Positions 2,396 to 38,722 of a stretch of DNA of 64,000 bases are shown in pieces. This DNA comes from an uncultured bacterium (GTDB lineage: Bacteria; Omnitrophota; Omnitrophia; Omnitrophales; CAZLUT01): NCBI GenBank assembly GCA_964562805.1, contig CAZLUT010000002.1, positions 1,172 to 65,171 of the forward strand, in the 5' to 3' direction. The notes beneath the pieces are model-generated. The model made no database searches. It worked only from the letters and a program-made list of their open reading frames with translations, and had not been told where the DNA came from. A program made the translations under genes and the position numbers. The number at the start of each line of letters is the position of its first letter. Positions within the stretch are counted from its first letter, which is position 1.

Positions 2396-2400
2396 AAAAA

Positions 2401-5830: not shown

Positions 5831-5907
5831 TGTTTACAAATTACCCAACGTCAAAAATTAACTTATTATACTAAAAATAAGTTTGTCAAAAGCCGTTAAT
5901 TCAAACA

Positions 5908-21231: not shown

Positions 21232-21350
21232 TTCAGCTGAGACTTTGGTTGTAGAAGAGATTTAAAATTACGATAAAGAATTTTGTTTTATACTATAATC
21301 AAAAGAGTTTTATTTGAGACAAGACTAATATAAAGTTGGGAGAATTTAAG

Positions 21351-22376: not shown

Positions 22377-22399
22377 ATTAACAATAGGATTTAAGTACG

Positions 22400-23716: not shown

Positions 23717-23741
23717 CGCACCACCTTGTTAGGAAGTTTTT

Positions 23742-24881
23742 GTGTTAAATTGTGCTGATTTTTTTAGGGTCTTAACTCAAAAAGGCGTTCAATTTTATTG
23801 CGGTGTTCCTGATTCTTTGCTCAAATCCTTTTGTGCTTATTTATCTGACGCACTCCCTGAAGATAAAAATATAATTGCCGTTAATGAAGGAGCTGCGGTT
23901 GCGTTGGCTTCCGGAGTTTATATGGCGACAGGACAACCAGCCGTTGTTTATATGCAGAATTCGGGAGAAGGGAATGCAGCGAATCCTCTTCTCTCGCTTG
24001 CCGATTCCAAAGTATACAGTATCCCTATGTTGCTATTAGTGGGATGGCGTGGAGAGCCTGGAGTGAAGGATGAGCCACAGCATATTAAGCAGGGAGAGGT
24101 TACTTTAGCGCTTTTAGATGCGATGGGTATTCGGTATGAGATACTTCCATCTGATGTAAAATTGGCCGAAGCGGCTATCCAGAGAGCTTTTGAATATATG
24201 AATTTGAAGAAAGCTCCTTATGCCCTAATTATTCGTAAGGACACTTTTGAGCCTTACGCTTCTACTGCGACACGCGCCGAAAATAACTACTCACTTAGCC
24301 GTGAAGATGCGATACAAGAAATTATTCAATTTACAAAAAACATGCAAAATCAGCCCGCTTTTGTATCCACTACCGGAATGACTTCTCGAGAACTTTTTGA
24401 AAACCGAGCCAAGAATAGAGAATCGTTAAGCTCTGATTTTCTTACGGTAGGCTCAATGGGTCACGCATCTTCGATTGCCTTAGGACTTGCATTAAATTTA
24501 CCCAATCGGGATGTTTTTTGTGTTGATGGAGATGGTGCTATGCTGATGCATATGGGGAGCTTAGCGACCATTGGCAGCTCCGGTGTTAAGAATTTTAAAC
24601 ATATCCTGATTAATAACGGAGCACATGACTCCGTAGGCGGTCAGCCTACTTGCGGGTTTAAAGTCAATTTCCGAGAGATTGCCAAGGCTTGTGGTTACAC
24701 CAATACTTGGTTAGCAACGAATAAGGATGAATTAAAAGAATGTTTGAAGCAAATGGTTACAAAAGAAGATTTAGAGCTTTTGGAAATTCGAGTAAAAAAA
24801 GGAGCTAGGAAAGATTTGGGTCGCCCCACTTCCTCGCCAGGAGAGAATAAAATTCAATTTATGGAATATTTAAAAGGTTAA
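23742..24881 (+). CDS. ppd: Phosphonopyruvate decarboxylase (TPP-dependent)
   Basis: N-terminal GVQFYCGVPDSLLKSF. TPP-binding motif GDGAMLMHMGSLATIG...NNGAHDSVGGQ. Size roughly 379 aa, immediately downstream of pepM. GTG start. Confidence 0.8.
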   Translation: MLNCADFFRVLTQKGVQFYCGVPDSLLKSFCAYLSDALPEDKNIIAVNEGAAVALASGVYMATGQPAVVYMQNSGEGNAANPLLSLADSKVYSIPMLLLVGWRGEPGVKDEPQHIKQGEVTLALLDAMGIRYEILPSDVKLAEAAIQRAFEYMNLKKAPYALIIRKDTFEPYASTATRAENNYSLSREDAIQEIIQFTKNMQNQPAFVSTTGMTSRELFENRAKNRESLSSDFLTVGSMGHASSIALGLALNLPNRDVFCVDGDGAMLMHMGSLATIGSSGVKNFKHILINNGAHDSVGGQPTCGFKVNFREIAKACGYTNTWLATNKDELKECLKQMVTKEDLELLEIRVKKGARKDLGRPTSSPGENKIQFMEYLKG

Positions 24882-24886
24882 GATCG

Positions 24887-25603
24887 ATGATAAATGTAAT
24901 TGCTATAGATGGTCCTTCATATGTTGGTAAAAGCACAGTAGCTCGTTCGTTGGCTGCCTTATTGGGTTATGACTTTATTAATACTGGCCATATGTTTCGC
25001 GTGGTCGCACGAGAATGTCTTTTAAGAAATCTTTCTGTAAAGAAGGAAGGTGAGGTTGCAGATCTGGCGCATTGTCTTGATATTCAGTTTGAAAGTAATG
25101 AAAAAGGCAACTCGAGAACTCTGGTTAACGGTGAAGATTTAACCGAAGCTTTAGAGGGGCATGAGATTATGCTTTTAGCTGCCAAAGTGGCTCAGATTGG
25201 AAAGTTGCGGGATATTTTAACTGAGAAGCAGCGCTTGTATGCCGACAAAAAGATGATTGTCATGGAGGGCCGAGACATTGGCTCAATTGTTTTTCCTGAT
25301 GCAAAGTGGAAATTTTTTATTACAGCTTCGATGGAAATTCGTGCTAAGCGAATGTATAAAATTATGAATGAAGCTGAGAAGAAGAATTGCTCTGATTACC
25401 ATACGTTGATTCCAAAGCTAGAAGAGATTGATGAGGCCGACCGCAATCGCAAGATTTCGCCGCTTAGAATCGCCGATGATGCAATTATTTATGATAATTC
25501 TGACAGTCCTAGTGAACATGAAGATTCGTTGATTTTAAAATACTACATTACACACACGGACGAGATTGTTAAAAATACAGAAATTCTGAAGTTTAAAAAA
25601 TAA
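24887..25603 (+). CDS. cmk: Cytidylate kinase
   Basis: IAIDGPSYVGKSTVARSLA P-loop, GRDIGSIVFPDAKWKFFITAS and RDRNRKISPLRIADDA align closely with canonical Cmk. Confidence 0.75.
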   Translation: MINVIAIDGPSYVGKSTVARSLAALLGYDFINTGHMFRVVARECLLRNLSVKKEGEVADLAHCLDIQFESNEKGNSRTLVNGEDLTEALEGHEIMLLAAKVAQIGKLRDILTEKQRLYADKKMIVMEGRDIGSIVFPDAKWKFFITASMEIRAKRMYKIMNEAEKKNCSDYHTLIPKLEEIDEADRNRKISPLRIADDAIIYDNSDSPSEHEDSLILKYYITHTDEIVKNTEILKFKK

Positions 25604-25613
25604 GGAAAGATTC

Positions 25614-26480
25614 ATGGAAACTATTAAAGAGCTTAAAGTGATCTGTCAAACAACAGCGCAAAAAGACATTTCAAATGTTTATATGCGCTATATTTGCCGT
25701 CCGATTTCAATTCGTATCACACGCTTTCTTATTCCAACAGCAGTCACTCCGGACCAAGTTAGCTTTGCGATGATTGTTACGGGTGTTATTGCGAGCCTTA
25801 TATTTTTAATAGCGCATCCTATAAGTTTTTTCCTGGCAGCGCTCCTTCTTCAGTTTTGGTATATTTTAGATTGTGTCGATGGAGAATTGGCTCGTTATCG
25901 CTCCTATTCCAAAAATAAAGAAGTGATCCAGGATAAGGCTACTTTGCCGATAACGGGTGCTTATTGGGATTATCTCAATCATTACATTGTTCACGGGCTT
26001 GTACCGCTTACGATTTCTTACGGATTGTTTCTTAAGACACAAAATTCGTTTTGGATTTTACTCGGATTTGTCACCTCGACTTTCCAAGTGATGTTGCTTG
26101 CTATTCACGATACGCAATGCCGCGCCTATCTAACTAAAATCCGGAAAACACTTCCGACTCATGTATTGAATGTTAAATCGGCGTCGGAAGTGGATGAGGC
26201 TGCGCCAGAAAAAAAGAAAATGAAAGGAATAATGTTTTTGAAGCTGCCATTTGTGACCGTCCATTATCTTTCGACTTATCCTTCGGTGATGAATGTGATA
26301 ACTGTGCTTGCTCTTACGTCGTGCTTAACAGGATTTGGGAGTGATTTTAGAGGTTTCTTTCTTTGGTTTTATGCGTTGGGATCAGGTGTTGTTTTTTTAG
26401 GTTTAGCTTATAAGCTGCTCCATGACCGTGGTCTCGATAAGGAATTTGATAAAGAATTTTATTTAGAAAAACGCACCTAA
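25614..26480 (+). CDS. CDP-alcohol phosphatidyltransferase-family membrane protein
   Basis: Polytopic membrane protein with the DxxDGxxAR start of the CDP-OH phosphotransferase motif (LDCVDGELARYRS). Confidence 0.55.
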   Translation: METIKELKVICQTTAQKDISNVYMRYICRPISIRITRFLIPTAVTPDQVSFAMIVTGVIASLIFLIAHPISFFLAALLLQFWYILDCVDGELARYRSYSKNKEVIQDKATLPITGAYWDYLNHYIVHGLVPLTISYGLFLKTQNSFWILLGFVTSTFQVMLLAIHDTQCRAYLTKIRKTLPTHVLNVKSASEVDEAAPEKKKMKGIMFLKLPFVTVHYLSTYPSVMNVITVLALTSCLTGFGSDFRGFFLWFYALGSGVVFLGLAYKLLHDRGLDKEFDKEFYLEKRT

Positions 26481-26533
26481 GATGAATTTAAAATTTCCGC
26501 CACCATCAAAAAACCAATCTCCTTTTCTTTTGC

Positions 26534-27574
26534 GTGAAAAATAAAAAAATAAAATCAATTAACTGCCTTTTTTTGTTGGATGCTGGTCCAGGAATAGGGA
26601 TGGGACACTTGAGGAGATGTCTTGTTTTGGCCGAAAAGCTGAAGCAAAAAGGTGTTAAAAATATATGTTTTGCAACTAAAACGCCGAATGATATTTCAGT
26701 TTTGGTTGGAGCAAAATTCCCAATTATTCATTTGCCTTCTACTGACAGTCTAAAAAATAGAACCGATCTTTTGCAGTCAAAAATAAAAGATTACCGGACA
26801 AAACTTATTATTGTGGATAGTTACAAGATAGCGGTCAATTCACTTCGAGCGATAGAGAAGAGAATAGCACCTGTAATTGTGTTAGATGATTATTTGCACT
26901 TATCTCATTATCCGGTTTCCGGAATTATTAACTACAACCTTGGCGCTGAAAAGCGTACTTATAAATGTGAGTCAGAAACCAGATTGTTTCTTGGAGCGAA
27001 ATACGCCCTTATTTCCGGAGAATTTATCAAAGAAAAAAAGTCAGCTCGGGTTCAAGGGATAGGGCGTCGGTTATTTGTGTCTTTAGGCGCAAATCCAGCG
27101 GGAAGCTTGCTCAAAAAAACGCTTAAAGCGATTGGGAACATAGAAGAAAATCTGAAGATTTCTTTGGTTTTGAGTCCTTGTTATCCGAATAGAGATAAGT
27201 ATAAAAGCGGCAAGGTTTCTCTGGTTGCTCCGAACGCTATCGCCCGGGCAATGAAGCGGTGCGACTTTGCCTTAAGTGCTGCCGGGGTTACAAGTTATGA
27301 GCTTGTATTTATGAGGATTCCAACGCTATTGTTTGTATTAGCTCGGAACCAAAGCCGAGTTGCAGAAGAAATGCAGCGTTGTGGCGCGGCTAAAAATTTA
27401 GGTTGGTTAAAAACTATTTCAACTAGTAAACTAACAGTTGAAATCAGCAATTTTGTGAATAGTAAAATGAAAGTGGCTGGCAAAAAAGTTACTAAGTTTA
27501 ATAAGATTGACGGTAAGGGTTCAGATCGTCTCGCTAGTTTTATTATTTCTGAATATTTGAGGGGGAAAAAGTGA
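26534..27574 (+). CDS. pseG: PseG-like UDP-sugar hydrolase (GT28-like; pseudaminic acid pathway)
   Basis: IGMGHLRRCLVLAEK matches the PseG/SpsG G-x-G-H-x-x-R motif. By-eye alignment with C. jejuni PseG along the length (LIIVDSYKIA, GAKYALISGEF, FVSLGANP). GTG start. Confidence 0.65.
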   Translation: MKNKKIKSINCLFLLDAGPGIGMGHLRRCLVLAEKLKQKGVKNICFATKTPNDISVLVGAKFPIIHLPSTDSLKNRTDLLQSKIKDYRTKLIIVDSYKIAVNSLRAIEKRIAPVIVLDDYLHLSHYPVSGIINYNLGAEKRTYKCESETRLFLGAKYALISGEFIKEKKSARVQGIGRRLFVSLGANPAGSLLKKTLKAIGNIEENLKISLVLSPCYPNRDKYKSGKVSLVAPNAIARAMKRCDFALSAAGVTSYELVFMRIPTLLFVLARNQSRVAEEMQRCGAAKNLGWLKTISTSKLTVEISNFVNSKMKVAGKKVTKFNKIDGKGSDRLASFIISEYLRGKK

Positions 27575-28305
27575 AGATTGTTGCTACTATCGAAGCGAGG
27601 ATGGGTTCCAGCCGGCTTCCTGGAAAGATTCTTAAAAATATTTTGGATAAGCCGACTCTAGAGCTGCTCGTTGAGCGGGTTAGAAAATCAAAGCACATTG
27701 AGCAGGTGGTTGTAGCCACTACGGTTGATCCGAGTGACAACATCACCGAAGAAAATTGCCGCAAGATCGGTATTGATTGTTTCCGAGGAAGCTCCGAAGA
27801 TGTTTTGAATAGAGTGCTTCAAACAGCCAAAGCATATCAGGCTGATTTAATCGTAGAATTAACAGGCGACTGCCCGCTTTTAGATCCAGAAATTATTGAT
27901 AGTGTTATCGAAAAGTATCTTAGCGGTTCATTTGATTATGTAAGCAATGTTTTGGAAAGAACTTATCCGAGAGGCTTGGATACCCAGGTTTTTTCAACGG
28001 CTGTTTTAGAGAAAGTGTCTCAAATCACTCAGGATCCGGCTGACAGAGAAAACGTTTCGCTTTATATCTATGAAAACCCCGAGCAATTTAAGCTAGGGAA
28101 CGTTAAAGCTTCCTCGGAGCATAACAGGCCGGATTTAAGATTAACCGTTGATACGGTTGAGGATTTTAAATTAATTAGTTCGATCTATAATGAGTTGTAT
28201 CCAAAAAACAAAGACTTTAATTTGTCGGATGTGATTAAGCTTTTAAATCAAAAGCCTGAACTCAGCAAGCTTAACGCGGATGTTCAGCAGAAGAAAGCAA
28301 GATGA
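27571..28305 (+). CDS. pseF: CMP-nonulosonic acid synthetase (acylneuraminate cytidylyltransferase family; PseF/SpsF-like)
   Basis: KIVATIEARMGSSRLPGKILKNI and VVVATT. Size 244 aa. GTG start after a GAGGGGGA ribosome-binding site. Confidence 0.7.
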   Translation: MKIVATIEARMGSSRLPGKILKNILDKPTLELLVERVRKSKHIEQVVVATTVDPSDNITEENCRKIGIDCFRGSSEDVLNRVLQTAKAYQADLIVELTGDCPLLDPEIIDSVIEKYLSGSFDYVSNVLERTYPRGLDTQVFSTAVLEKVSQITQDPADRENVSLYIYENPEQFKLGNVKASSEHNRPDLRLTVDTVEDFKLISSIYNELYPKNKDFNLSDVIKLLNQKPELSKLNADVQQKKAR

Positions 28306-29348
28306 GTGGAGTTGATAAAAAATCAAAAAAACTAAGAGCCGGCATCGTTGGATGCGGTCGAATTGCAAGTACGTTTGATTCGGATCCTAAGCGGAAGAAT
28401 ATTGCTACTCATGCCGGTGCTTATACAGCGTCACCTGGTGTTGACTTGGTAGCGGCATGTGATCTCGATGAGAAAAAAGTGGCAGCCTTTGGCGAGCGCT
28501 GGAAGGTTAAAAATTTATATACCAACTTTAATAAAATGCTTAAAAGTGAGAAGTTGGATATTCTAAGTCTCTGCACTTGGGCTGGATCTCACTTTCAATT
28601 GGCAAAAACTGCGATTAATAGCGGCGTAAAAGCGGTGTTTTGTGAGAAGCCTATAACAGTTTCTTTGAGTGAGGCGGATCAGCTGATTAAATTAGCCAAA
28701 CGCAAAAAAGTTGTATTTGCGGTTAATCACTCGAGGAGATGGGATTCAGGTCTTCAAAAAATAAAGTCTGCGATTAATCAGGGTAAGTTGGGTGAAATTC
28801 GCCAGGTGAGCTGTTATTACACTGCTGGCATTTCAAACACTGGAACTCACTTATTTGACTTATTAAATTTTTTCTTTGGTGATGCGAAACAGGTAATTGG
28901 CGCTGTTAGCAATTTAGTTGATAAAAAGGGTGCTGATCCAACTGTTTCAGGATTAATAGAGTATAAGAGCGGAACGTTGGTTTCTGTTCAGGGATTGAAT
29001 GTGAATGATTATTTAATTTTTGAGATAGATATTTATGGCTCGAAAGGAAGGATTCGCATTTGTAATAGCGGTTTTAAATCTCAGGTCTGGAAAGTTTTGC
29101 CAAGTGATTATTTTTCAGGCTACAAAGAGCTTAAAGAGGTAAAGTCATCTTTCGATTTATCCAAAAAAGAACAGATGAAAAACGCCGTCAAAGATATAAT
29201 GCAATGCATAAAAACAAAAAAGAAACCGTCCTCAAGCGCTAAGGATGGCATGAAAGCACTGGAGCTTATTTGCGCCATGAAGCTCTCATGCAAAAAAGGG
29301 ACCAAAGTAGATTTGCCGCTTAAAAATAGAAATATTACAACGGAGTAA
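28302..29348 (+). CDS. Gfo/Idh/MocA-family NAD(P)-dependent sugar oxidoreductase
   Basis: LRAGIVGCGRIAS Rossmann N-terminus and EKP motif CEKPIT. ATGA overlap with the upstream gene. Confidence 0.75.
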   Translation: MSGVDKKSKKLRAGIVGCGRIASTFDSDPKRKNIATHAGAYTASPGVDLVAACDLDEKKVAAFGERWKVKNLYTNFNKMLKSEKLDILSLCTWAGSHFQLAKTAINSGVKAVFCEKPITVSLSEADQLIKLAKRKKVVFAVNHSRRWDSGLQKIKSAINQGKLGEIRQVSCYYTAGISNTGTHLFDLLNFFFGDAKQVIGAVSNLVDKKGADPTVSGLIEYKSGTLVSVQGLNVNDYLIFEIDIYGSKGRIRICNSGFKSQVWKVLPSDYFSGYKELKEVKSSFDLSKKEQMKNAVKDIMQCIKTKKKPSSSAKDGMKALELICAMKLSCKKGTKVDLPLKNRNITTE

Positions 29349-29351
29349 AAG

Positions 29352-30590
29352 ATGACTGATCCAATCAGAACAAAGCCATTCCCCCAACACCCCACTTTTG
29401 ATGAAGAGGCAAAGCGTGGAGTTCTTGATGTGTTGTCATCGGGCGTGCTTTCCGGATTTGTAGCTAATTCGGGGCCTAATTTTTTAGGTGGTCCGAAAGT
29501 CAAGGAATTAGAAGCAGCTTTCTGCGATTATTTTGGCGTAAAATATGCGATGACCGTTAATTCTGCAACGGCGGGGCTGCACGCTGCGGTTGCTGCGTGT
29601 GGCATTGGGCCGGGGGATGAGGTGATCGTGCCTCCTTATACGATGTCAGCTTCCGCGAGTGCGGTATTGATGCAGAGTGCTGTGCCGCTGTTTGCAGACA
29701 TTCAAGATGATATCTATTGCGTTGATCCAAAATCTATTGAAGAGAGAATTACATCTCGAACCAAAGCTATTATTGTGGTTCATTTATTTGGGCATCCGGC
29801 AGACATGGACTCTATTTCAAAAATCGCCAAAAAACACGGCTTAAAAATTATTGAGGACTGTGCTCAGGCTCCCGGGGTCAAATATAAAAATAAATTTGTC
29901 GGAACCATCGGTGATATTGGAGTTTTTAGCTTCAATCAGCATAAAACTATTACAACGGGTGAAGGCGGCGTTGTTATTACCAACAGTGAAGAAGCTGCTT
30001 TAAAAGTGCGCCTAGTTCGTAATCATGGCGAAGCCGTTTTGGAAAACATGGAAATAAATGATTATTCAAACACTCTCGGCTGGAATTATCGAATGACCGA
30101 GCTGGAGGCGGCCGTTGGCATTACTCAATTTAAGAAGCTCGACACCCTAACGAAACACAAACAAGAGTTGGCGAATGTTCTAAATGAAAAGCTTAAGAAA
30201 TTTGAAGAGTTAAGTTTGCCGGTAGCACTGGATGGATGTAGTCATGGCTATTTTGTATATCCAATGAAGTGGCGCGCATCTAAAACAGGTCTGTCGCGCG
30301 ATCAAATAGTCGAAGCTTTAAATAAGGAGGGAATCCCTTTTGGCAAAGGCTATGTTCGGCCTCTTTATCTTTTGCCGCTTTTTCAAAAGCAGATATGTTT
30401 TGGCAGTAACGGCTGGCCTTTTACATCAATACCTGAGAAGGAGAGGCAGAAATATAAAAAAGGACTTTGTCCTGTTGCTGAGAGGATGTACGAAAAGGAG
30501 CTTATGCTGACAGGTGTTTGTTATTGGCCGGTTACGAAAGAAGATATCATGGATGTTGTAAAGGCATTCGAGAAGATATTAAAAAAATGA
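29352..30590 (+). CDS. pseC: DegT-family PLP aminotransferase, PseC-like (UDP-4-keto-6-deoxy-sugar aminotransferase)
   Basis: FCDYFGVKYAMTVNSATAGLHAA, FSFNQHKTITTGEGG and NYRMTELEAAVG. Confidence 0.75.
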   Translation: MTDPIRTKPFPQHPTFDEEAKRGVLDVLSSGVLSGFVANSGPNFLGGPKVKELEAAFCDYFGVKYAMTVNSATAGLHAAVAACGIGPGDEVIVPPYTMSASASAVLMQSAVPLFADIQDDIYCVDPKSIEERITSRTKAIIVVHLFGHPADMDSISKIAKKHGLKIIEDCAQAPGVKYKNKFVGTIGDIGVFSFNQHKTITTGEGGVVITNSEEAALKVRLVRNHGEAVLENMEINDYSNTLGWNYRMTELEAAVGITQFKKLDTLTKHKQELANVLNEKLKKFEELSLPVALDGCSHGYFVYPMKWRASKTGLSRDQIVEALNKEGIPFGKGYVRPLYLLPLFQKQICFGSNGWPFTSIPEKERQKYKKGLCPVAERMYEKELMLTGVCYWPVTKEDIMDVVKAFEKILKK

Positions 30591-31651
30591 AAAGAAAAAA
30601 ACAGATTAAAATCAATAATAAGCCGATAGGTGATGGGGCACCCGTTTTTGTCATAGCGGAAGCCGGTTCTAATCACAATGGAAGTCTAAGGCAAGCAAAG
30701 AAACTTATTGATATTGCTGCTAAGGCGGGGGCGGACGCAGTTAAGTTTCAGACGTTTTCTGCAGATAAATTGTATTCGAAAAAAACCCCGATGATGAGTT
30801 ATCTCAGAAAAAACAAGCTGGTAAAGAAAAAAGAAACGGTTTGGGATCTTCTAAAAAAACTTGAAATTCCGAGAGTTTGGCATTCCGAATTAGCTAAGTA
30901 TTGCCGTTTAAAAAAAATATTTTTTCTTTCGACTCCATTTGATCTAAAGGCTGTTGATCAATTGGAAGCGGTTAATATGGCTGCTTATAAAATCGCCTCA
31001 TATGAAATAACCCATCTTCCTCTCTTGGAGAAAGTTGCAAAAACAGGGAAGCCGATTATTCTGTCGACCGGCATGGCAGATTTGGATGATATTAGGGTTG
31101 CATTAAAAACTATATATAGAACAGGAAATAAAAAAGTTGTTCTTTTGCATTGCGCTATCAACTACCCACCCAAATTTGAAGATCTTCATTTAAAAGCGAT
31201 GCAGACGATAAGGAACGAATTTAAGGTGCCCGTTGGTTTTTCAGATCATACGATGGGACTGACATCCGATGTTGCTGCTGTTGCTTTAGGGGCATGCGTA
31301 ATTGAAAAACATTATACGATTAGCCGGAAGCTCGAAGGCCCTGACCATTCTTTTTCATTGGAGCCTGACGAATTAAAAAACATGATCCAAGGTATCCGCG
31401 ACACCGAACGTGCTTTGGGCCTACCAATTAAACGAGCGACAAAAGCGGAAAAGGAAATGTATCGTCTTGGCCGGAGAAGTTTGGTTGCGGCCTGCAGCAT
31501 TCCAAAGGGAGCCAAAATATCTCGTAGGATGATCGAAGTAAAAAGACCGGGCTTTGGAATTCCAACCAAAGATATGAATCAAGTTATTGGCCGGCTAGCA
31601 TCTCGGGATATCGAAACAGACGATATTCTTTCGTGGAAGATGATTCGGTAA
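30587..31651 (+). CDS. pseI: Nonulosonic acid synthase (NeuB/PseI family) with a C-terminal SAF domain
   Basis: IGDGAPVFVIAEAGSNHNGSLRQAKKLIDIAAKAGADAVKFQTF. ATGA overlap start at 30587; the track's 30518 start lies inside the upstream gene. Confidence 0.85.
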   Translation: MKRKKQIKINNKPIGDGAPVFVIAEAGSNHNGSLRQAKKLIDIAAKAGADAVKFQTFSADKLYSKKTPMMSYLRKNKLVKKKETVWDLLKKLEIPRVWHSELAKYCRLKKIFFLSTPFDLKAVDQLEAVNMAAYKIASYEITHLPLLEKVAKTGKPIILSTGMADLDDIRVALKTIYRTGNKKVVLLHCAINYPPKFEDLHLKAMQTIRNEFKVPVGFSDHTMGLTSDVAAVALGACVIEKHYTISRKLEGPDHSFSLEPDELKNMIQGIRDTERALGLPIKRATKAEKEMYRLGRRSLVAACSIPKGAKISRRMIEVKRPGFGIPTKDMNQVIGRLASRDIETDDILSWKMIR

Positions 31652-31750
31652 TTTAACCGACGTCTCTTTGTTGCTGTCGGCTGGTTTTTAGGTAACAGAT
31701 TAATCAAAATCATAAATATATTGGTTTTTAAAGATTTATTTTGATAAGAC

Positions 31751-31790
31751 TTGACTATTATTGACAACTATAAGCTATTTTTGATAAGAT
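31751..31790 (+). promoter_or_regulatory. Second copy of the TTGACTATT(A/T)TTGA promoter box pair upstream of the HTH-pseB sub-operon
   Basis: TTGACTATTATTGACAACTATAAGCTATTTTTGATAAGAT. Its first 13 nt match 21166-21178 at 12 of 13 positions, and the CTATTTTTGAT box is shared. Confidence 0.4.
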
Positions 31791-31839
31791 TTATACGGTC
31801 TCAAAAATAACATAAGAGAATATAGAGGGTTAGTATTAT

Positions 31840-32100
31840 ATGGATGAAATCAAAGAAAATGCTGTTTATACGCCAGCAGAAACTCAAAAAATTTTAAAAA
31901 TCAGTGCAAGCACCATGACTCGCCTCATTAAAAAAGGATTGATTCATGCGGCCAAAATAGGGGGGCAATACCGCATTTTAGGTAAAGAAATTTTAAGAGC
32001 GATGTCGCCAAAATTGGAAGATAAAGTAGGAAAAATATACAACAAAGGCCGGCAATGGGTTCATGAAGACGATGATCCAAACAGAAAGGTCAAAAAATGA
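31840..32100 (+). CDS. Small excisionase-family/MerR-like helix-turn-helix DNA-binding protein
   Basis: TPAETQKILKISASTMTRLIKKGLIHAAKIGGQYRI matches the HTH_17/excisionase pattern. Size 86 aa. Its stop overlaps the pseB start as ATGA. Confidence 0.55.
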   Translation: MDEIKENAVYTPAETQKILKISASTMTRLIKKGLIHAAKIGGQYRILGKEILRAMSPKLEDKVGKIYNKGRQWVHEDDDPNRKVKK

Positions 32101-33095
32101 AAGATTTTTTCAAAAATAAGACAATTTTAGTCACGGGCGGCACAGGATCGTTTGGTAAAAAATTCATTAAAATGACTCTCGAAAACTTTTCACCAAAAAA
32201 AGTAATTATTTATTCCAGGGACGAAATGAAACAGTGGGAAATGCAGGATGAGTATAAAGAGTACGATAAAAGAAATGTGCTTAGGTATTTTATAGGCGAT
32301 GTTAGAGACCGAGAGCGTTTAGAGAGGGCATTCCACGGTGTTGATTATGTGGTGCATGCTGCCGCAACTAAAATTGTACCGACAGCAGAATACAATCCAA
32401 TTGAATGCATCAAGACCAACGTCAATGGCGCTATTAACGTGATTGATGCTGCAATTGACCAAAAGGTAAAAAGAGTCGTAGCTCTTAGCACCGACAAGGC
32501 AAGTAATCCTATTAATTTGTATGGTGCTACCAAGTTATGTTCCGATAAATTGTTTGTGGCTGCAAACGCATACACAGGAGACCAAGATACTCGTTTGTCT
32601 GTTGTTAGATATGGGAATGTGATGGGTAGTCGCGGCTCTATCATTCCTTTTTTTAGGTCTATCAAAAGCAAAAATAAGATTCCAATTACAGATATAAGGA
32701 TGACACGATTCATGATCACACTTGAGCAGGGTGTGGAATTGGTTTGGCTGGCGTTGCATGAAGCAATCGGTGGTGAGATCTATGTGCCTAAAATCCCTTC
32801 GATGAAGGTGGTTGATATTGCCAAAGGAATCGCACCAAACGCTGAACACAATATTATAGGGATCCGACCTGGAGAGAAGATACATGAATCGCTGATTAGC
32901 GAAGAAGATGCTCGAAATACTTATGAATATAAGGATTGTTACAAGATCCTGCCGGCTATTTATGATTGGCATGAATGTGCGACTCGAATAGGTGACGGAA
33001 AGAGGTGTGAGGAGGGTTTTTCTTATGCAAGCGGTAACAATTCCAAATGGATGACAAGTGAAGAACTGTCTAACTGGATGGAGAGGGAATATTAA
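32097..33095 (+). CDS. pseB: UDP-GlcNAc 4,6-dehydratase/5-epimerase (PseB/FlaA1/CapD family)
   Basis: KTILVTGGTGSFGKKFIKM, YxxxK (YGATKLCSDK). Size 332 aa. Confidence 0.85.
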   Translation: MKDFFKNKTILVTGGTGSFGKKFIKMTLENFSPKKVIIYSRDEMKQWEMQDEYKEYDKRNVLRYFIGDVRDRERLERAFHGVDYVVHAAATKIVPTAEYNPIECIKTNVNGAINVIDAAIDQKVKRVVALSTDKASNPINLYGATKLCSDKLFVAANAYTGDQDTRLSVVRYGNVMGSRGSIIPFFRSIKSKNKIPITDIRMTRFMITLEQGVELVWLALHEAIGGEIYVPKIPSMKVVDIAKGIAPNAEHNIIGIRPGEKIHESLISEEDARNTYEYKDCYKILPAIYDWHECATRIGDGKRCEEGFSYASGNNSKWMTSEELSNWMEREY

Positions 33096-33558
33096 TAGTA
33101 AAAAAAATTTCACCGTTAGAGTTGCCAGGCAGCCCGATTCAGATTGCTTGTTTGCGTGGCGAAATGATGCCGAGACGATTAGAAATTCACTAACTGGTAA
33201 ATGCGTTACAAGAAAAGAACATGAGAAATGGTTTAAAAATGTTATTAACTCGCCGGAATACAAAATTTTTATTGCGGTCAAACCCAACCATCATCCAATA
33301 GGAGTTGTTCGATACACGATGAAGAAAAAGAAAAATTTTGAAGTACATATCAATTTAAATCCCCGGGAGCGCGGCAAAGGGTGGGGAAGCCGCCTCATTA
33401 AGCGGTGTAACAACCTTTTAAAAAGATCTGCTGCTGGAAGCCGAGTGGTAGCCCAGGTTAAAGAAGATAATTTTCCATCGCAATCAGTTTTTGAAAGGGC
33501 CGGTTACCGGCGTCACTCAAAAACTGGCGGAACGATTACTTACCAGTCAATTCTATAA
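33058..33558 (+). CDS. pseH: GNAT N-acetyltransferase, PseH-like
   Basis: LFAWRNDAETIRNS and EHEKWFKNV align with C. jejuni PseH (IFKWRNHPDINQFM, EHLRFLKKL). GNAT core RERGKGWGSRLI. The start is uncertain because the ATG at 33058 overlaps pseB by 38 nt. Confidence 0.6.
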   Translation: MKNCLTGWRGNINSKKNFTVRVARQPDSDCLFAWRNDAETIRNSLTGKCVTRKEHEKWFKNVINSPEYKIFIAVKPNHHPIGVVRYTMKKKKNFEVHINLNPRERGKGWGSRLIKRCNNLLKRSAAGSRVVAQVKEDNFPSQSVFERAGYRRHSKTGGTITYQSIL

Positions 33559-33566
33559 ATAATGCC

Positions 33567-34118
33567 GTGTTAGTAAAATTTCAATCCTCAAATTTTACTT
33601 TATCGGGCAATAAAATCTGCCTCAATATTTTTTCAGATCAATATATTGCAGCAGATTATGTAAGTTGGTTTAATGATCAAGAAGTTTGTAAATTTAATAG
33701 ACATGGCGAAACTGTTTATACTCTTGAAAAAGCAAAAGAATATTATGAAGGCATCAAAAAATCTGAAAATATTATTGTTTTTGCCATTTGCGACAACAAA
33801 ACGAACAAGCATGTTGGCAATGTTAGCTTAGATATTTCCGGACAAAACAAATCAGGCGATATTGCGATTATTATCGGTAATAAAGATTATTGGGGTAAAG
33901 GTGTGGCAACCGAGGCGTTTGGTTTAGTGATCAATTTTGCGTTCAATAGCCTTAACCTGAACGAAGTGACTGCAGGTATGACAACTAACAACATGGGAAT
34001 GATTGGTGTTGTTGAAAAATTAGGATTTCAAAAAAAAGGTATCTCGAAAGATGCTCTTAAAAAAAAGAACGTTTACATGGACGTCGTCCAATGGGCGATG
34101 AGCAACCCAAAAAATTGA
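33567..34118 (+). CDS. GNAT-family acetyltransferase (RimL-like)
   Basis: IGNKDYWGKGVATEAFGLVINFAFNSLNLNEVTAG is a GNAT motif A/B pattern. Confidence 0.7.
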   Translation: MLVKFQSSNFTLSGNKICLNIFSDQYIAADYVSWFNDQEVCKFNRHGETVYTLEKAKEYYEGIKKSENIIVFAICDNKTNKHVGNVSLDISGQNKSGDIAIIIGNKDYWGKGVATEAFGLVINFAFNSLNLNEVTAGMTTNNMGMIGVVEKLGFQKKGISKDALKKKNVYMDVVQWAMSNPKN

Positions 34119-34178
34119 ACAATTGCTGATGTTGCGGAACAGCTGAAAAAGTTCAAATAAATTAAAAAGGAGAAAAAA

Positions 34179-35312
34179 ATGCGTTATTGTAAAAAGTGTG
34201 TACAGCCTGATACAAGACCTGGAATATATTTTAATAAGGAAGGAATCTGTGGGGCTTGTTTGCACCAAGACGAAGTAAATAGTGGGATTGATTGGAATGC
34301 CCGTGAGCAGGAATTAAAGGAAATCGCAGAGTGGGCTAAGAAAACCACCAAGGCCCCCTACGATTGTGTTATCGGAGTGAGCGGGGGCAAAGACAGTACT
34401 TTTCAAGCCCTCTATGCAAGAGATAGATTAGGATTGAGAGTATTGCTAGTTAATAGCGAGCCCGAAGGTATTAGTGAAATAGGAGCCCATAATATAGAGA
34501 ATCTGATTAATTTAGGATTTGATACAGTTAAAATGCGACCAAATCCGAAAATCATCAAGCAGTTAATGAAGCGGGATTTTTACAAATACCTGAATCCCGT
34601 AAAGATCACAGAGTATTCACTATGGTCTTCTGCTTATATTATTGCTGATAAATTTGAGATACCTTTGATCATTCAGGGAGAGAATCCAGGATTAACCTTA
34701 GGTGTAAGAAATACCGGTGTAGGTACAGACAGTAACGCCCTGAACGCAAACAAGCAGAATACCCTTTCTGAAGACTGGAGATCATACATTAGCGATGAAA
34801 TAAGTGAAAAAGACATGTATTTTTATCATTACGATAGAGAATCCATGAAGAAAAAAGGGATAAGAGGTGTATGGCTTCAGTATTACGCAAGAGAATGGTC
34901 TCCGCCTCATAATGTTGAGTTTTCTATAAAAAACGGATTAACTGTCAGGCAGGATTTTGACCCTAAGGATATCGGTTCTTATATCGGCTATTTTCAGATG
35001 GACTCAGATCTAGTGCAAGTTAACCAGCTTTTAAAATACATAAAATTTGGTTTCGGTCAATGTACGGATCATGCCTGCTATGAGATTAGAATAGGAAAGA
35101 TAACGAGAGAACAGGGAGTAGAGTATGTAAAAAATTATGATGGAAAATGTGCCGACCGCTTTATTCAAACGTTTTGTGATTATCTTGGGATCACGGTGAA
35201 AGAATTTTGGAAGGTGGCTGATTCTTTTCGAGGGGACATGTGGAAGAAGAGTCCTAGCGAAGAATGGTTATTGAGAGATCCGGTATGGGAACAGGAAATA
35301 GCAAACGCATAA
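34179..35312 (+). CDS. pseA: N-acetyl sugar amidotransferase (PseA/WbuX family, PP-loop ATP pyrophosphatase)
   Basis: N-terminal CKKC...CGAC zinc ribbon. PP-loop VIGVSGGKDST. AAGGAG ribosome-binding site upstream. Confidence 0.65.
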   Translation: MRYCKKCVQPDTRPGIYFNKEGICGACLHQDEVNSGIDWNAREQELKEIAEWAKKTTKAPYDCVIGVSGGKDSTFQALYARDRLGLRVLLVNSEPEGISEIGAHNIENLINLGFDTVKMRPNPKIIKQLMKRDFYKYLNPVKITEYSLWSSAYIIADKFEIPLIIQGENPGLTLGVRNTGVGTDSNALNANKQNTLSEDWRSYISDEISEKDMYFYHYDRESMKKKGIRGVWLQYYAREWSPPHNVEFSIKNGLTVRQDFDPKDIGSYIGYFQMDSDLVQVNQLLKYIKFGFGQCTDHACYEIRIGKITREQGVEYVKNYDGKCADRFIQTFCDYLGITVKEFWKVADSFRGDMWKKSPSEEWLLRDPVWEQEIANA

Positions 35313-35382: not shown

Positions 35383-37260
35383 ATGAGTATATTCTATCTA
35401 GTCGAAGATGATGATGCTTCCCTCGATTATTCGGATGGTACCATTGTCTCGCTGACACCTAAGGCTAACGAGTCTTTACGCCGCCGGGGATTAAAATATA
35501 AAATCATTGAGGATTATTATTCAGAAAAAGAATTATGCGCAAATGAGGTAGATTATTTTGATGCGCAGCTGAAATGGTTTGACGAATTTGATGAATTTTT
35601 AAAGAAAAATATTTCATTTTGTCATAAGTACGATATTGGCCTTGCCGCCGCTCACCATAATCGAATTATTTATCTTGTTGATTCCTTGATCATTCGTGCT
35701 CGGATATTGGAAGAGTTTGTTAAAAATACAAAACCAAGTGAAATACGCATTGTTAGCCTGGGCACTAAGAACGAAGGGGATTTCTCGATTTATAATTTTT
35801 TTAGAAAAGAACGCTGGTCTCTTTTACCTTTGATTAAACTTAATTCTAACGAAAAGATAAAAGGAATATCCGTGCGATGGATGACAAGAGATTTAGCAGA
35901 AACAAAAGCTTTATTTAGTCCTAGCAATAAAACAAGCCCCTTTTCACAATTGGCTAAACCGGTATTTAAAGAATGTATCGCCCCCTTCAAGCGATATTTT
36001 TATTATAAGAAAATCGCTGACCATTTGATTGAAAAGCCGGCCCAATCTTTGCATTCCATTCTTCTTCTTGATGCAGGCTCTGCGGCAATTGATTTTTTGA
36101 TGGGGAAGGTGATTCGTTCAGGAGGTCGCGTATTTTTCAAAGATAATGATGAAATATCTTTGATTAATTCTTTGACAGGGCAAAAGCAGAAGATATCAGA
36201 GGCAAGTAGTCTCGAAACCATGAGTCATGAGGAATGTAAAAAGGCGGCAGATAAATTAGCCGTTTCCGGGCTTTTAGAATGGGTCAATCAATATACAAAT
36301 CTTGATATTACTGCAATTGTTGAACCTTATCTGAGACACTTCATCGAAAGAATAATTCCTAAGATTATCAAAGAAATTAGATATCTGTTGGATTTTTTAA
36401 AGCAAAATTCTGTCGATGCTATAGTCGCAAGAGCTAGCGTGGGAGAAAACTACACGGCAGCGCTGCTAGCAGCTCAGATTTTAAATATTCCTAGGATTTG
36501 TTTTCAGCATAGCGTAGGTCCCCTGGATATGAAAAGCTGGGTAGTTGATGAGCTTAATTTGTTTGATCATAATTTTGCAATCAGTACGCCTTCCAGGCAA
36601 TATTTTGAAAAAGAAGCAGCCCAAAACCCTAAATTTTCATGTAAAATTCGAGAATGCTCAGATAACCTGCTTGCGTTAAAAAAACAGCGCAAACAACCGC
36701 AAAACGCAAAGCCTTGTCTTATTTATTGTCCGTCTAAAGTGCCTTTTGGGATGCGGCATTTTAATACATTATATTATCCGGTGACTTGGTATTTTGAATT
36801 TCAAAAGCAAATACTTACCTTATTATCCAATAATTCCGAGTATGATATTATTTATAAACATTTAGACAGCCAAGAATGGGCCAATCAATCGGTTATCCCG
36901 TGGCTTAAAGAAAAGAATTTTCAAAATATTCAAATTAAAACAGGCCCTTTTAAGCGGTATTTAAATAAGGCCGATCGGGTTTTATTTGATTATCCATCAA
37001 CAGGTTTATTCGAAACGGCAGCTGCTGGGATTCCGGTTTTTTCGCTATGTTATGATTCTGGGAAAATATGGCCGTCAATGCAGGAAGTTTTTGGCCGTTC
37101 CCTCCAGTATTTTAGCGATATTCAAGATGCCTTAGATAAAATCAGCGGATATTTAAAGGATCCAGCAGATCTTTATAAGATCAATCTTCCTTTATCCGAC
37201 TCAAATAATTCAGAATATTTGAGTCGCATTATCGCAAGAAAAAAAGAAGTTTATGTCTAA
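35383..37260 (+). CDS. Large GT-B-fold transferase, TagF-like CDP-alcohol/CMP-sugar-dependent transferase candidate
   Basis: The C-terminal Rossmann half (CLIYCPSKVPFGMRHF...DYPSTGLFETAAAGIPVF) resembles the Glyphos_transf/GT-B C-domain. N-terminal 300 aa of unknown function. Confidence 0.35.
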   Translation: MSIFYLVEDDDASLDYSDGTIVSLTPKANESLRRRGLKYKIIEDYYSEKELCANEVDYFDAQLKWFDEFDEFLKKNISFCHKYDIGLAAAHHNRIIYLVDSLIIRARILEEFVKNTKPSEIRIVSLGTKNEGDFSIYNFFRKERWSLLPLIKLNSNEKIKGISVRWMTRDLAETKALFSPSNKTSPFSQLAKPVFKECIAPFKRYFYYKKIADHLIEKPAQSLHSILLLDAGSAAIDFLMGKVIRSGGRVFFKDNDEISLINSLTGQKQKISEASSLETMSHEECKKAADKLAVSGLLEWVNQYTNLDITAIVEPYLRHFIERIIPKIIKEIRYLLDFLKQNSVDAIVARASVGENYTAALLAAQILNIPRICFQHSVGPLDMKSWVVDELNLFDHNFAISTPSRQYFEKEAAQNPKFSCKIRECSDNLLALKKQRKQPQNAKPCLIYCPSKVPFGMRHFNTLYYPVTWYFEFQKQILTLLSNNSEYDIIYKHLDSQEWANQSVIPWLKEKNFQNIQIKTGPFKRYLNKADRVLFDYPSTGLFETAAAGIPVFSLCYDSGKIWPSMQEVFGRSLQYFSDIQDALDKISGYLKDPADLYKINLPLSDSNNSEYLSRIIARKKEVYV

Positions 37261-38722
37261 AAGAAAAGAGATTTTGAAGCAGGCCGGAGTTTATTCAGGC
37301 GGCTCTGTATTAACGCAATTGATCACTGTGGTTGCCGGTATTTTATGCCGGCGTTTTTTAGGGCCGCTTCAAATGGGTATCTGGTCAACTCTTCAAATTA
37401 TTCTCGACTATTCTAAATATTCGACGCTAGGCGTCATGAATGCTGTCTCCCGTGAAATTCCTTACCATATGGGGAAGGGAGAAGAAGGCGCTGCTGAGAA
37501 GATTAAAAATATTACGTTTACCTTTATTGTTGTCACTTCTATTTTTATTGGCCTATGCTTTGTTGGTTTTGTTTTGTTGACACGCGGATATTTTACGCCG
37601 GAATTGACTTACGGCCTTTTTTTTATTGCCGCGATTATCTTTTTGCAAAGAATTAATAATTTATTTATTTCGCTTCTAAGAAGTTATAAAGAATTTTCTT
37701 TAGCAGCAAAACAAATGGTTTTATCTGCTCTAGTAAATGCGGTCTTGGTAGCTTTTTTGACATATTTTTTTAAAATTTATGGGTTCATGTGCTCTGTGGC
37801 GCTGAGTTTTGTTTTTAATATTGTTTATATACAGCTGCATTACAAATTTCATTTTCGCTGGCAATTCAGCTTGAGGCCGCTTTGGCCCCTTATTAGATTT
37901 GGATTTCCTTTAATGATTATTGGTTTATTAATAACCGTGCTCAGAAGCATTGATAAGATCATGATCGTTAAAATGCTAGGATTTGAAAGTTTGGGTCTTT
38001 ATAGTATCGCGATAATGATTTATGGCTATGCGGGCAGCTTTTCCACATCAATTGCCGTTGTGCTATTTCCTCACTTTCAGGAAAAATTCGGAAAAAGTGA
38101 TAGGCCGGAAGATCTTAAAAATTATCTGTTAAAAGCATCAAAGGCATTCGCCCTATCCATGCCGGTCATTATTGGATTAATTTGGACAGCGGCACCTTTT
38201 TTCGCCGCATGGTTTCTTCCACAGTACATTTCGGGTATTCCGGCAATGAAAAACTTAAGTTTGGCCTTATTTTTTATTGCCCTTACGCAGCCCTATCAAG
38301 ATTTTTTAATTACAACTAAAAAACATTTCTTTTTATTCCCTTTGCTCAGTCTTTCTTCTTTGCTCGCTTTTCTTCTTGATTACGCGGTTATACGTTTGGG
38401 ATATGGAATTACTGGCGTTGCATATATGACAGCCATGGTATTTATGATCAATTTTATAACGACTTATCTTTTAAGTGCCCGTTATATTGCGGATCGGAAG
38501 ACCATTATTGTTTATTTATTGAAATTTTTTGCGTGTTTTGCATATTTAATACTAATTCTTTTTGGTATCAATTCATCAATATCGGTTGAAGCCTTATCCC
38601 TAAAAGAAGCTATTGTAAAAACGGCCGTCTTTTTATTATTATGTTTACCTTATTTCATAGTATTAAACAAAGAGTTTGGACTGATTGCCTTGATTAAAAA
38701 GAAATTTATTGGAGAAAAATAA
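37253..38722 (+). CDS. wzx: Wzx-type oligosaccharide flippase (MOP superfamily, PST family)
   Basis: Roughly 12-14 TM helices. N-terminal pattern KQAGVYSGGSVLTQLITVVAGILCRRFLGP is typical of the polysaccharide biosynthesis protein family. Confidence 0.7.
   Translation: MSKRKEILKQAGVYSGGSVLTQLITVVAGILCRRFLGPLQMGIWSTLQIILDYSKYSTLGVMNAVSREIPYHMGKGEEGAAEKIKNITFTFIVVTSIFIGLCFVGFVLLTRGYFTPELTYGLFFIAAIIFLQRINNLFISLLRSYKEFSLAAKQMVLSALVNAVLVAFLTYFFKIYGFMCSVALSFVFNIVYIQLHYKFHFRWQFSLRPLWPLIRFGFPLMIIGLLITVLRSIDKIMIVKMLGFESLGLYSIAIMIYGYAGSFSTSIAVVLFPHFQEKFGKSDRPEDLKNYLLKASKAFALSMPVIIGLIWTAAPFFAAWFLPQYISGIPAMKNLSLALFFIALTQPYQDFLITTKKHFFLFPLLSLSSLLAFLLDYAVIRLGYGITGVAYMTAMVFMINFITTYLLSARYIADRKTIIVYLLKFFACFAYLILILFGINSSISVEALSLKEAIVKTAVFLLLCLPYFIVLNKEFGLIALIKKKFIGEK

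Follow-up and report, generated by a model that had tools for sequence, protein, structure and literature searches.

The 64-kb stretch of contig CAZLUT010000002.1 analysed here (hereafter, the window), from an uncultured marine bacterium of the Omnitrophota, carries a surface-glycan locus in which genes for a pseudaminic acid (Pse)-type nonulosonic acid (NulO) are combined with a conserved set of tailoring genes and with a phosphorus head-group module. On balance, we lean towards a reading in three layers: a Pse-type NulO route, a tailoring cassette, and a separate module that would make and transfer a phosphonate head group. The parts of the locus are of known kinds; their combination and two of the modules are undescribed. 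An original prediction, made from the letters of the sequence, had proposed a complete Pse pathway at 26534-35312, interleaved with phosphonate genes. That prediction is partly supported: the locus is real and coherent and its general nature had been read correctly, but several of the gene labels were wrong or over-confident.

A phosphorus head-group module lies among the nonulosonic acid genes

Every gene of an array of about 29 kb (~15.5-44.3 kb) lies on the + strand, with gaps mostly shorter than 25 bp and with starts that are often 4 bp inside the preceding gene. The interval 26534-35312 contributes ten co-directional open reading frames (ORFs), spaced from -38 to +188 bp. Between PseC (19976-21133) and PseG (26534-27574), just upstream of this interval, stand the following five genes:

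21336-22376, + strand: radical SAM (rSAM)/SPASM (twitch) protein, first gene of a phosphonate trio (NCBIfam rSAM/SPASM matches)
22400-23716, + strand: cytidylyltransferase (PF01467)-PEP mutase (PepM) fusion, Fom1-like (TIGR02320, 403.7 bits, cut-off 319.55; TIGR00125)
23742-24881, + strand: phosphonopyruvate decarboxylase Ppd (TIGR03297, 492.9 bits, cut-off 312.5)
24887-25603, + strand: cytidylate kinase Cmk (TIGR00017, 195.4 bits, cut-off 135.55)
25614-26480, + strand: divergent CDP-alcohol phosphotransferase-like (CDPOH-like) membrane protein of 288 aa (weak NCBIfam matches to IPCT/DIPPS)

The interleaving with pepM and ppd that had been predicted is thus confirmed, both genes being real at 22400-24881. 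Gaps between genes do not exceed 53 bp throughout 21336-31651, and the only two large gaps of the region hold its two best sigma-70-like matches (21186-21214 and 31761-31790); these are consensus matches only, and the promoter scan as a whole stayed under the shuffle expectation (33 sites versus 49.7). The tight packing, together with the best promoter-like site just upstream at 21186-21214, led us to propose that 21336-31651 is co-transcribed, and the promoter-like positions fit a transcript that probably joins the phosphonate genes to PseG through NeuB.

The PepM fusion carries the motifs HPGH at residue 18 and EDKTGLKMNS at residue 264. Fusions of PF01467 with PepM are a known and common architecture, found in 23.6% of Ppm proteins (PMC6697681), and neighbourhoods containing rSAM, ppm and ppd have been listed as unclassified (Li & Horsman 2022, PMC8942020). 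With the PntC/Fom1-type fusions (Rice et al. 2019) and the rSAM+ppm+ppd systems the window shares PF01467-PepM and Ppd, and CMP activation would be expected; it differs from them in having no AEPT, iron-dependent alcohol dehydrogenase (Fe-ADH) or PntC, and in the coupling of the module to Cmk and the CDPOH-like protein inside a NulO operon. A tblastn search with three Fe-ADH and two NTP_transf_3 proteins from relatives found no Fe-ADH or PntC-type protein in the 64-kb window, and no PhnW-type or class-V aminotransferase was present among the window ORFs scanned by Pfam and NCBIfam (most ORFs between 413 and 55763). The rSAM protein, which shows weak PDB similarity to MoaA, NifB and BtrN (twitch domain), is a candidate for the third phosphonate step.

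A metagenome scan for the PepM fusion class returned 80 loci. Individual loci, from this and from the other comparisons, are designated here by L numbers. The closest PepM homologues (81-85% identical) always occur in the order rSAM (84-87%), PepM, Ppd (66-69%), in L032-L040 and L051, which come from peat and lake metagenomes and have no other window-like gene near the trio; in L038 the trio lies between P-type ATPase and FabH-like genes. No third-step phosphonate enzyme (Fe-ADH, PhnW-type or PntC) accompanies these stand-alone trios. DNA identity to them (72%) covers 21366-24881 and stops at gene boundaries, and GC over the trio is slightly raised (0.42 versus 0.40), a difference that is not diagnostic. 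Since copies stand alone in unrelated contexts and the DNA homology ends at gene boundaries, the trio is a discrete and probably mobile module.

The CDPOH-like protein gave no Pfam match, PF01066 included. Its sequence contains D86xxD89G90xxA93R94...G115xxxD119xxxH123, with 20 residues between AR and G; within its family the first part of the motif D-x2-D-G-x2-A-R...G-x3-D-x3-D is invariant and His123 replaces the last Asp. A Foldseek search with its AlphaFold 2 (AF2) model (pLDDT 89.5) returned AF2299 (4O6M) as best match (probability 1.0, TM 0.58), and AF2299 and the PIP synthases were all matched with probability 1.0 and TM 0.56-0.59. The subfamily is small: of 1.84 billion cluster representatives, about 130 match at E<=1e-30. 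In species-representative genomes its members come almost exclusively from Candidatus Omnitrophota metagenome-assembled genomes (MAGs), with a few unclassified bins, and the proteins of these Omnitrophota loci are 41-72% identical to those of the window.

Comparison of the related loci separated a constant from a variable part. Cmk lies directly before the CDPOH-like gene in all loci with enough sequence (12/12), usually with a Nudix gene before Cmk. The slot upstream of this pair is occupied by PepM-NTP_transf_3 and Ppd, with or without a phosphonate-type Fe-ADH, in L007, L008, L011, L016 and L028 (the Fe-ADH being present in L011, L016 and L028), and by Fe-ADH and an NTP-transferase in L010. 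In L009 (5059-8764), L012, L013 and L015 it holds a Cj1418-family kinase (NF004508, 956 bits), a gamma-glutamyl-CDP-amidate hydrolase-like protein (NF045546, 164 bits, under the cut-off of 250) and an NTP-transferase, which we take to be the genes of the Campylobacter phosphoramidate (MeOPN) pathway. These homologues of C. jejuni Cj1418/Cj1417/Cj1416 stand at the PepM/Ppd slot and are not found in the window; the genes downstream of them are Cmk and the CDPOH-like gene and not, as in the C. jejuni MeOPN pathway, the kinase Cj1415 and the transferases Cj1421/1422.

Nearly all related loci then continue into glycosyltransferase family 2 (GT2), PMT_2, HTH_17, PseC, PseB, CTP_transf_3, PseG and NeuB genes. 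From this gene content, the linkage of the phosphorus head-group module to a NulO locus is conserved and its head-group chemistry is interchangeable. The constancy of the Cmk-CDPOH pair next to a slot for either phosphonate or phosphoramidate genes suggests for the CDPOH-like enzyme a role in transferring a P-C or P-N head group from its CMP-activated form, with release of CMP that would be recycled by Cmk. The pair, with its swappable supply modules, would then offer a candidate for the enzyme that attaches C-P and N-P head groups at the cell surface, a step that is still poorly defined in phosphonate biology. The phosphonate-modified NulO glycan that had been predicted is in keeping with the conserved linkage in relatives; the absence of a third-step enzyme from the window and the existence of trios standing alone speak against it. 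A literature search found no paper linking phosphonate with nonulosonic, pseudaminic or sialic acid.

It may also be that the phosphonate is not carried by the NulO glycan, and that the CDPOH-like enzyme makes a phosphonolipid or modifies another polymer, the adjacency of the genes reflecting a shared cell-surface island. The characterised CDP-alcohol phosphotransferases use lipid or small-alcohol acceptors, the fold of the window protein matches PIP synthases and AF2299, and the phosphonate trio is probably mobile and turns up in unrelated surroundings, all of which would fit. On the other side, Cmk, the CDPOH-like gene and the head-group module border on NulO genes in almost every related locus whose flank is long enough, and in the window the module is probably co-transcribed with PseG through NeuB. 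We regard this alternative as a tentative but substantial possibility.

The first steps are probably Pse-type, whereas the synthase and cytidylyltransferase diverge

The genes that would build and activate the NulO lie on both sides of the head-group module:

19976-21133, + strand: PseC, UDP-4-amino-4,6-dideoxy-beta-L-AltNAc transaminase (TIGR03588, 516.5 bits, cut-off 423.5)
26534-27574, + strand: PseG-type UDP-sugar hydrolase (TIGR03590, 178.7 bits, cut-off 153.55)
27571-28305, + strand: CTP_transf_3 cytidylyltransferase, presumed CMP-nonulosonate synthetase (PF02348, 116 bits)
30587-31651, + strand: NeuB-family nonulosonate synthase (NeuB_NnaB, 412.3 bits, cut-off 399.65; PseI, 338.4 bits, cut-off 340.25)
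32097-33095, + strand: PseB, inverting UDP-GlcNAc 4,6-dehydratase (TIGR03589, 528.1 bits, cut-off 407.75)
33058-33558, + strand: GNAT, best PseH candidate (TIGR03585, 47 bits, under the cut-off of 93.1; start at 33058 or 33148, uncertain)

PseB, PseC and PseG all score above their equivalog cut-offs, which is good evidence, as far as profiles can tell, for a Pse-type start of a 5,7-diamino NulO route. PseB contains the T-x9-Y-x3-K triad, and its best PDB match, H. pylori PseB (2GN4, 374 bits), is far ahead of Pen (234), CapE/WbjB (~225, with CapE at 223) and the retaining PglF (130). PseC scores 257.9 bits on the LegC model, under the LegC cut-off. In PseG the GxGHxxR motif reads GMGHLRR and aligns to the catalytic segment of C. 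jejuni PseG (3HBM), its sole PDB match. The GNAT at 33058-33558 carries a WRN motif (FAWRND), and no PseH was found among its PDB matches at E<0.01. Two relatives, L007 and L009, have PseG fused to a GNAT, and the homology of the fused GNAT of L007 to 33058-33558 supports the latter as a PseH-type partner. No NeuC/LegG-type Epimerase_2 protein was detected by Pfam among the window ORFs scanned.

The labels of the original prediction can be revised accordingly. PseG and PseB had been named correctly, and so had the WRN motif behind the PseH call, although the profile score of that protein falls short. The PseC label had been placed on the DegT-family protein at 29352-30590, which scores 258.3 bits on the PseC model against a cut-off of 423.5; the true PseC is the one at 19976-21133, outside the interval. 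The protein called PseF fails the PseF model (TIGR03584, 31.7 bits versus a cut-off of 205.7), and the one called PseI misses its own cut-off by 2 bits while it clears NeuB_NnaB. The pathway is not complete in the form claimed, because the named PseC is another DegT protein, the cytidylyltransferase is not PseF and the synthase is not a PseI equivalog. Set against the CMP-Pse pathway of H. pylori and C. jejuni, the window shares PseB, PseC, PseG and a PseA/WbuX-family amidotransferase at the level of curated cut-offs, as well as a WRN-motif GNAT; it differs in its synthase, its cytidylyltransferase and its weak PseH, in that the genes are split by phosphonate genes, and in a context that is of polysaccharide and not of flagellin.

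The synthase, whose mechanical ORF begins at 30518 and whose start in the metagenome gene calls is 30587, has a profile intermediate between PseI and NeuB/LegI. As controls we scored sequences rebuilt from PDB alignments on both models (PseI/NeuB): authentic PseI (8H2C) gave 514/288, N. meningitidis NeuB 229/394 and B. subtilis SpsE 257/301, compared with 338/412 for the window synthase and 339/409 for that of the closest relative, L028. Among solved structures the window synthase is closest to SpsE (250 bits), followed by PseI (205) and NeuB (167). For the cytidylyltransferase the best PDB match was 6OEW (175.5 bits), an entry on which a literature search found nothing relevant. The Omnitrophota relatives share the non-PseF cytidylyltransferase and the sub-threshold synthases, so that the divergence of the late pathway represents a lineage-wide variant and not decay. 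A spiro-SPASM identity for the CTP_transf_3 and rSAM proteins was dropped (32 and 57 bits, where the cut-off is 250), the likeness being at the level of domains only.

The kinship with SpsE bears on the configuration of the sugar. The B. subtilis Sps pathway, which includes the PseG-like SpsG, has been reported to give legionaminic acid (Leg), and its SpsM was complemented by pglF and not by pseB (PMC7439481). Like the window, this system (SpsM, C, D, G, E, F) combines a PseG-like hydrolase with a synthase that scores below threshold and higher on NeuB than on PseI; it differs in that SpsM behaves as a retaining PglF-type dehydratase, whereas the window enzyme is an equivalog-level PseB. Because the nearest solved synthase is SpsE and a Leg-making pathway can contain a PseG-like SpsG, sequence alone cannot fix the stereochemistry. 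The original prediction had held that a synthase and hydrolase clustering with Leg or Neu families would overturn it: the synthase does score higher on the Neu/Leg-type profile, and the hydrolase passes as PseG.

A product that is legionaminic-type or another non-Pse isomer, made by a Sps-like route (SpsG/SpsE/SpsF-like), would account for a synthase closest to SpsE that passes NeuB_NnaB and not PseI, as SpsE itself does, and has a precedent in the Leg made in B. subtilis with PseG-like SpsG and SpsM of PseB-like fold (PMC7439481). This alternative is nonetheless rather unlikely in our judgement, since the window PseB resembles its H. pylori counterpart much more closely than it does the retaining dehydratases of PglF type, which complement spsM, PseC clears the PseC and not the LegC cut-off, and Pfam detected no NeuC/LegG-type Epimerase_2. 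We hold with moderate confidence that the sugar probably has the Pse configuration.

A conserved cassette with a proposed tailoring role links cytidylyltransferase and synthase

Four further genes of the interval encode putative tailoring enzymes:

28302-29348, + strand: Gfo/Idh/MocA oxidoreductase (Pfam)
29352-30590, + strand: DegT-family aminotransferase, neither PseC nor LegC by profile
33567-34118, + strand: second GNAT, Acetyltransf_3 (Pfam, 84.9 bits)
34179-35312, + strand: WbuX/PseA-family N-acetyl sugar amidotransferase (TIGR03573, 350.1 bits, cut-off 203.2)

The Gfo and DegT genes sit between the cytidylyltransferase and the synthase genes with 4-bp overlaps, one of which joins the adjacent CTP_transf_3 and Gfo genes. 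The Gfo protein has many homologues (540 at E<=1e-20), and those 46-62% identical always lie between CTP_transf_3 and DegT, in L028, L029 and L031; a tblastn search of plasmids yielded nothing beyond haloarchaeal paralogues and an E. coli plasmid context that is unrelated. We read the order of the cassette in three contexts. In L028, which is Omnitrophota-like, it is 62-67% identical to and collinear with the window; in L029/L030, from an archaeal MAG (GCA_018674115.1) without PepM, and in L031, identity is 41-53%. The order CTP_transf_3, Gfo, DegT is kept in all three, with NeuB next in L028 and L029/L030 and no NeuB within the sequence examined of L031. The cassette is thus not confined to one phylum, nor to loci that have phosphonate genes, and some copies contain fusions: L031 encodes CTP_transf_3 and Gfo as one 602-aa protein (P0211, 114-1922), and L029 a 1266-aa ORF (3632-7432) composed of GNAT, CTP_transf_3 and Gfo/Idh/MocA, each adjoining a DegT gene. 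The N-terminal GNAT of the latter is most like 33567-34118 (39% identical).

On this comparative evidence, Gfo, DegT and the second GNAT form a conserved cassette of putative tailoring enzymes, in company with the cytidylyltransferase and the synthase. The oxidoreductase and second GNAT had been correctly spotted in the original prediction, but the oxidoreductase is not the mere extra that it was taken for. The conserved embedded order and the fusion of Gfo with CTP_transf_3 in two lineages argue for a CMP-linked and not a UDP-linked substrate.

As regards family, the second-best NCBIfam match of the Gfo protein is an archaeal UDP-GlcNAc 3-dehydrogenase (102 bits), WlbA-type dehydrogenases are among its PDB matches, and ElaA is not among these at E<=1e-10. 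The DegT protein scores 258.3 bits on the PseC model and 234.7 on the LegC model (cut-off 420), and its solved relatives are all sugar or cyclitol aminotransferases, the top matches including perosamine synthase and the Kdo8N transaminase KdnA (5K8B) at about 203-211 bits.

Two described systems place an oxidoreductase next to a CMP-NulO synthetase. In A. baumannii KL49, ElaB makes CMP-Leg5,7Ac2, the Gfo/Idh/MocA protein ElaA oxidises the C8 hydroxyl, and the 8-epimer arises when the short-chain dehydrogenase/reductase (SDR) ElaC reduces the ketone (PMC13656337); EpaA, of the prophage pair EpaA/EpaB, is a fusion of CTP_transf_3 and reductase for 8-epi-Pse (PMC12053666). As in the window, a CTP-transferase lies beside, or is fused with, an NAD(P) oxidoreductase acting on CMP-NulO, the likeness being one of family and gene order. 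Unlike the ElaA/ElaB/ElaC system, the window cassette has no ElaC-type SDR, and a pyridoxal phosphate-dependent aminotransferase follows the oxidoreductase. Since the aminotransferase replaces the stereo-inverting SDR reductase, amination would be predicted instead of epimerisation. An oxidise-then-transaminate logic at a terminal-chain hydroxyl of a ulosonic acid is shared with Kdo8N formation in Shewanella (KdnB oxidase and KdnA transaminase); that sugar has eight carbons, and the similarity of DegT to KdnA (203 bits) is no higher than to perosamine synthases. KdnB is a metal-dependent alcohol dehydrogenase and not a Gfo/Idh/MocA protein. A search for a Gfo/Idh/MocA gene in the Leptospira NulO paper gave no information.

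The O-antigen of Flexibacter/Tenacibaculum maritimum contains an 8-amino-3,5,7,8,9-pentadeoxy-manno-nonulosonic acid (PMC3210612). This sugar, manno (Pse-like) in configuration and from a marine bacterium, is the only described NulO with the predicted third amino group. In the literature searched no biosynthetic genes were found assigned to it; a T. maritimum serotyping paper notes a locus with aminotransferase, oxidoreductase and acetyltransferase.

The amidotransferase was also named correctly in the original prediction, and has its PP-loop (SGGKDS) at residue 68. No GATase/HisF-like (WbuY/WbuZ-type) partner for it was found anywhere in the window; in L010, L011 and L028 both such partners stand directly upstream of the amidotransferase.

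A more conservative interpretation is that a complete canonical pathway makes ordinary CMP-Pse5Ac7Ac or its acetamidino form, while Gfo, DegT and the second GNAT make another amino sugar of the polysaccharide, for instance a 3-amino sugar in the style of WbpB/WbpE or GnnA/GnnB. PseB, PseC, PseG and WbuX all scored above cut-offs, and the UDP-GlcNAc 3-dehydrogenase and WlbA-type matches of Gfo point in the same direction. We consider it unlikely, because Gfo and DegT are embedded between cytidylyltransferase and synthase in an order kept across phyla, Gfo-CTP_transf_3 fusions exist, and neither the synthase nor the cytidylyltransferase is of the canonical kind (PseI, PseF). That Gfo and/or DegT supply the third phosphonate step, reducing phosphonoacetaldehyde to 2-hydroxyethylphosphonate or transaminating it to 2-aminoethylphosphonate, was rejected as highly improbable. 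In its favour, PepM and Ppd are present in the window, where neither an Fe-ADH nor a PhnW-type enzyme was found, and L011, L016 and L028 carry a phosphonate-type Fe-ADH at that position. Against it, L028 has both its own Fe-ADH beside Ppd and the Gfo-DegT pair, so that in this locus the pair does not serve as reductase or transaminase of the phosphonate branch, the pair also accompanies NeuB and CTP_transf_3 in the PepM-free L029/L030, the stand-alone trios have neither Gfo nor DegT nearby, and the solved relatives of DegT act on sugars or cyclitols.

A proposed route in three layers

In the three-layer reading that we favour, PseB (32097), PseC (19976), the PseH-like GNAT (33058) and PseG (26534) would act in this order, followed by the NeuB-family synthase (30587) and then the CTP_transf_3 cytidylyltransferase (27571). 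In the second layer, Gfo (28302) would oxidise a hydroxyl of the CMP-activated NulO, likely that at C8 by analogy with ElaA; DegT (29352) would transaminate the ketone in place of its re-reduction, and the second GNAT (33567) would acylate the new amine, giving a 5,7,8-triamino NulO. WbuX/PseA (34179) would turn one N-acetyl group into acetamidino. In the third layer, the trio at 21336-24881 would make a CMP-activated phosphonate, which the CDPOH-like protein (25614) would move to an acceptor (a lipid, a polyprenyl-linked glycan or the NulO) with release of CMP, to be recycled by the neighbouring Cmk. Direct phosphonylation of the NulO is possible. The most specific form of this proposal, a terminal, CMP-activated acetamidino 5,7,8-triamino Pse derivative made by a hitherto unassigned cassette (CTP_transf_3, Gfo/Idh/MocA, DegT and GNAT), on a surface glycan of Omnitrophota-type bacteria that is itself esterified by a new CDPOH-like subfamily that uses CMP-phosphonates or phosphoramidates from interchangeable cassettes, represented here by an rSAM-dependent branch, is one to which we give little credence as a whole.

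Several points weigh against the three-layer reading. The Pse stereochemistry of the product is not secure, the synthase scoring a Neu/Leg-type profile above PseI and having its closest solved relative in SpsE, from a pathway reported to make Leg. The choice of C8 comes by analogy only, and Gfo and DegT could act at another position or on another nucleotide sugar, as GnnA/GnnB- or WbpB/WbpE-like enzymes. No Fe-ADH, PhnW-type transaminase or PntC homologue that would define the phosphonate end product is found in the 64 kb, and as the trio occurs alone elsewhere its presence here may be a recent insertion and not a chemical coupling to the NulO. The CDPOH-like protein has His123 where the family motif ends in Asp, and no Pfam match. 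Finally, the whole argument is built on the genes of an uncultured organism.

If the cassette reading is true, genes for making 8-amino (triamino) nonulosonic acids, a class of sugar known chemically from a fish pathogen, would be known for the first time, and the logic by which ElaA and EpaA modify a CMP-sugar at C8 would be extended from epimerisation to amination. The locus also places the production of phosphonates in the sea in a tangible setting at the cell surface, in a phylum that is uncultured.

The remaining genes point to a composite surface-glycan setting

Six other genes of the array have counterparts in the related loci or belong to the export of glycans:

17620-18378, + strand: GT2, polyprenyl-phosphate-sugar synthase-like (PpgS/AglJ-like; weak NCBIfam matches)
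18378-19973, + strand: PMT_2/GT-C-type membrane glycosyltransferase (Pfam PF13231), kept in related loci
31840-32100, + strand: HTH_17 small DNA-binding protein of 86 aa (PF12728, 47.9 bits)
35383-37260, + strand: GT-B-fold protein of 625 aa, LIC12162-like (weak precomputed PF27859)
37253-38722, + strand: Wzx-type MOP flippase (NF007773; Polysacc_synt Pfam, precomputed)
43758-44288, + strand: Nudix hydrolase, NudE-like (NF008736, 82.5 bits)

The partnership of the GT2 at 17620-18378 with the PMT_2 protein at 18378-19973 is kept across related loci, and homologues of the GT2 (41-55% identical) adjoin CDPOH or PMT_2 genes in L007-L016 and L028. All related loci have a copy of the HTH_17 protein, 58-72% identical, that directly precedes PseC/PseB or NeuB, and the promoter-like site at 31761-31790 precedes the ORF in the window; the protein is probably a locus-specific regulator. 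This ORF is omitted from the gene list of the original prediction.

L010 and L011 also have the 625-aa protein, encoded between WbuX and Wzx. A fold search with its AF2 model (pLDDT 78.8) gave generic GT-B matches only, including glycosyltransferases and UDP-GlcNAc 2-epimerases, and a firm assignment as NulO transferase was dropped for this reason. From the modelled fold, the protein may be a candidate glycosyltransferase for the nonulosonic acid, with a NeuC-like role as the other option.

Wza/Wzc genes are located at 7431-9974, several GT2/GT4 genes are present, and a 660-aa Wzy_C/O-antigen-ligase-like protein is encoded on the - strand at 413-2395. No flagellin-like sequence was found in the window. 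As originally predicted from the presence of Wzx, Wza and Wzc, this context (Wzx, GT2/GT4, Wza/Wzc, Wzy_C and no flagellin) favours a NulO carried by a polysaccharide, but the numerous GT-C-type membrane proteins would also fit protein or lipid glycosylation. An unusual number of GT-C-like or large membrane proteins is concentrated in the window, encoded at 13126-15570, 18378-19973, 45855-47576 (- strand), 49259-50212 and 50209-52053; they belong to the YfhO, PMT_2 (two proteins), DUF2079 and LPG_synthase_TM families. Polyprenyl-phosphate-sugar synthase-like GT2 genes lie near GT-C proteins at 17620-18378 and 45082-45858 (- strand). At 413-3765 (- strand) the Wzy_C protein adjoins a HAMP-GGDEF protein, upstream of a TPR protein and Wza/Wzc.

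Nudix homologues 55-59% identical to the window protein lie directly upstream of Cmk in L007-L011, L016 and L028. In the window the Nudix gene forms the end of the array, 18 kb downstream of Cmk, the locus being rearranged relative to L028.

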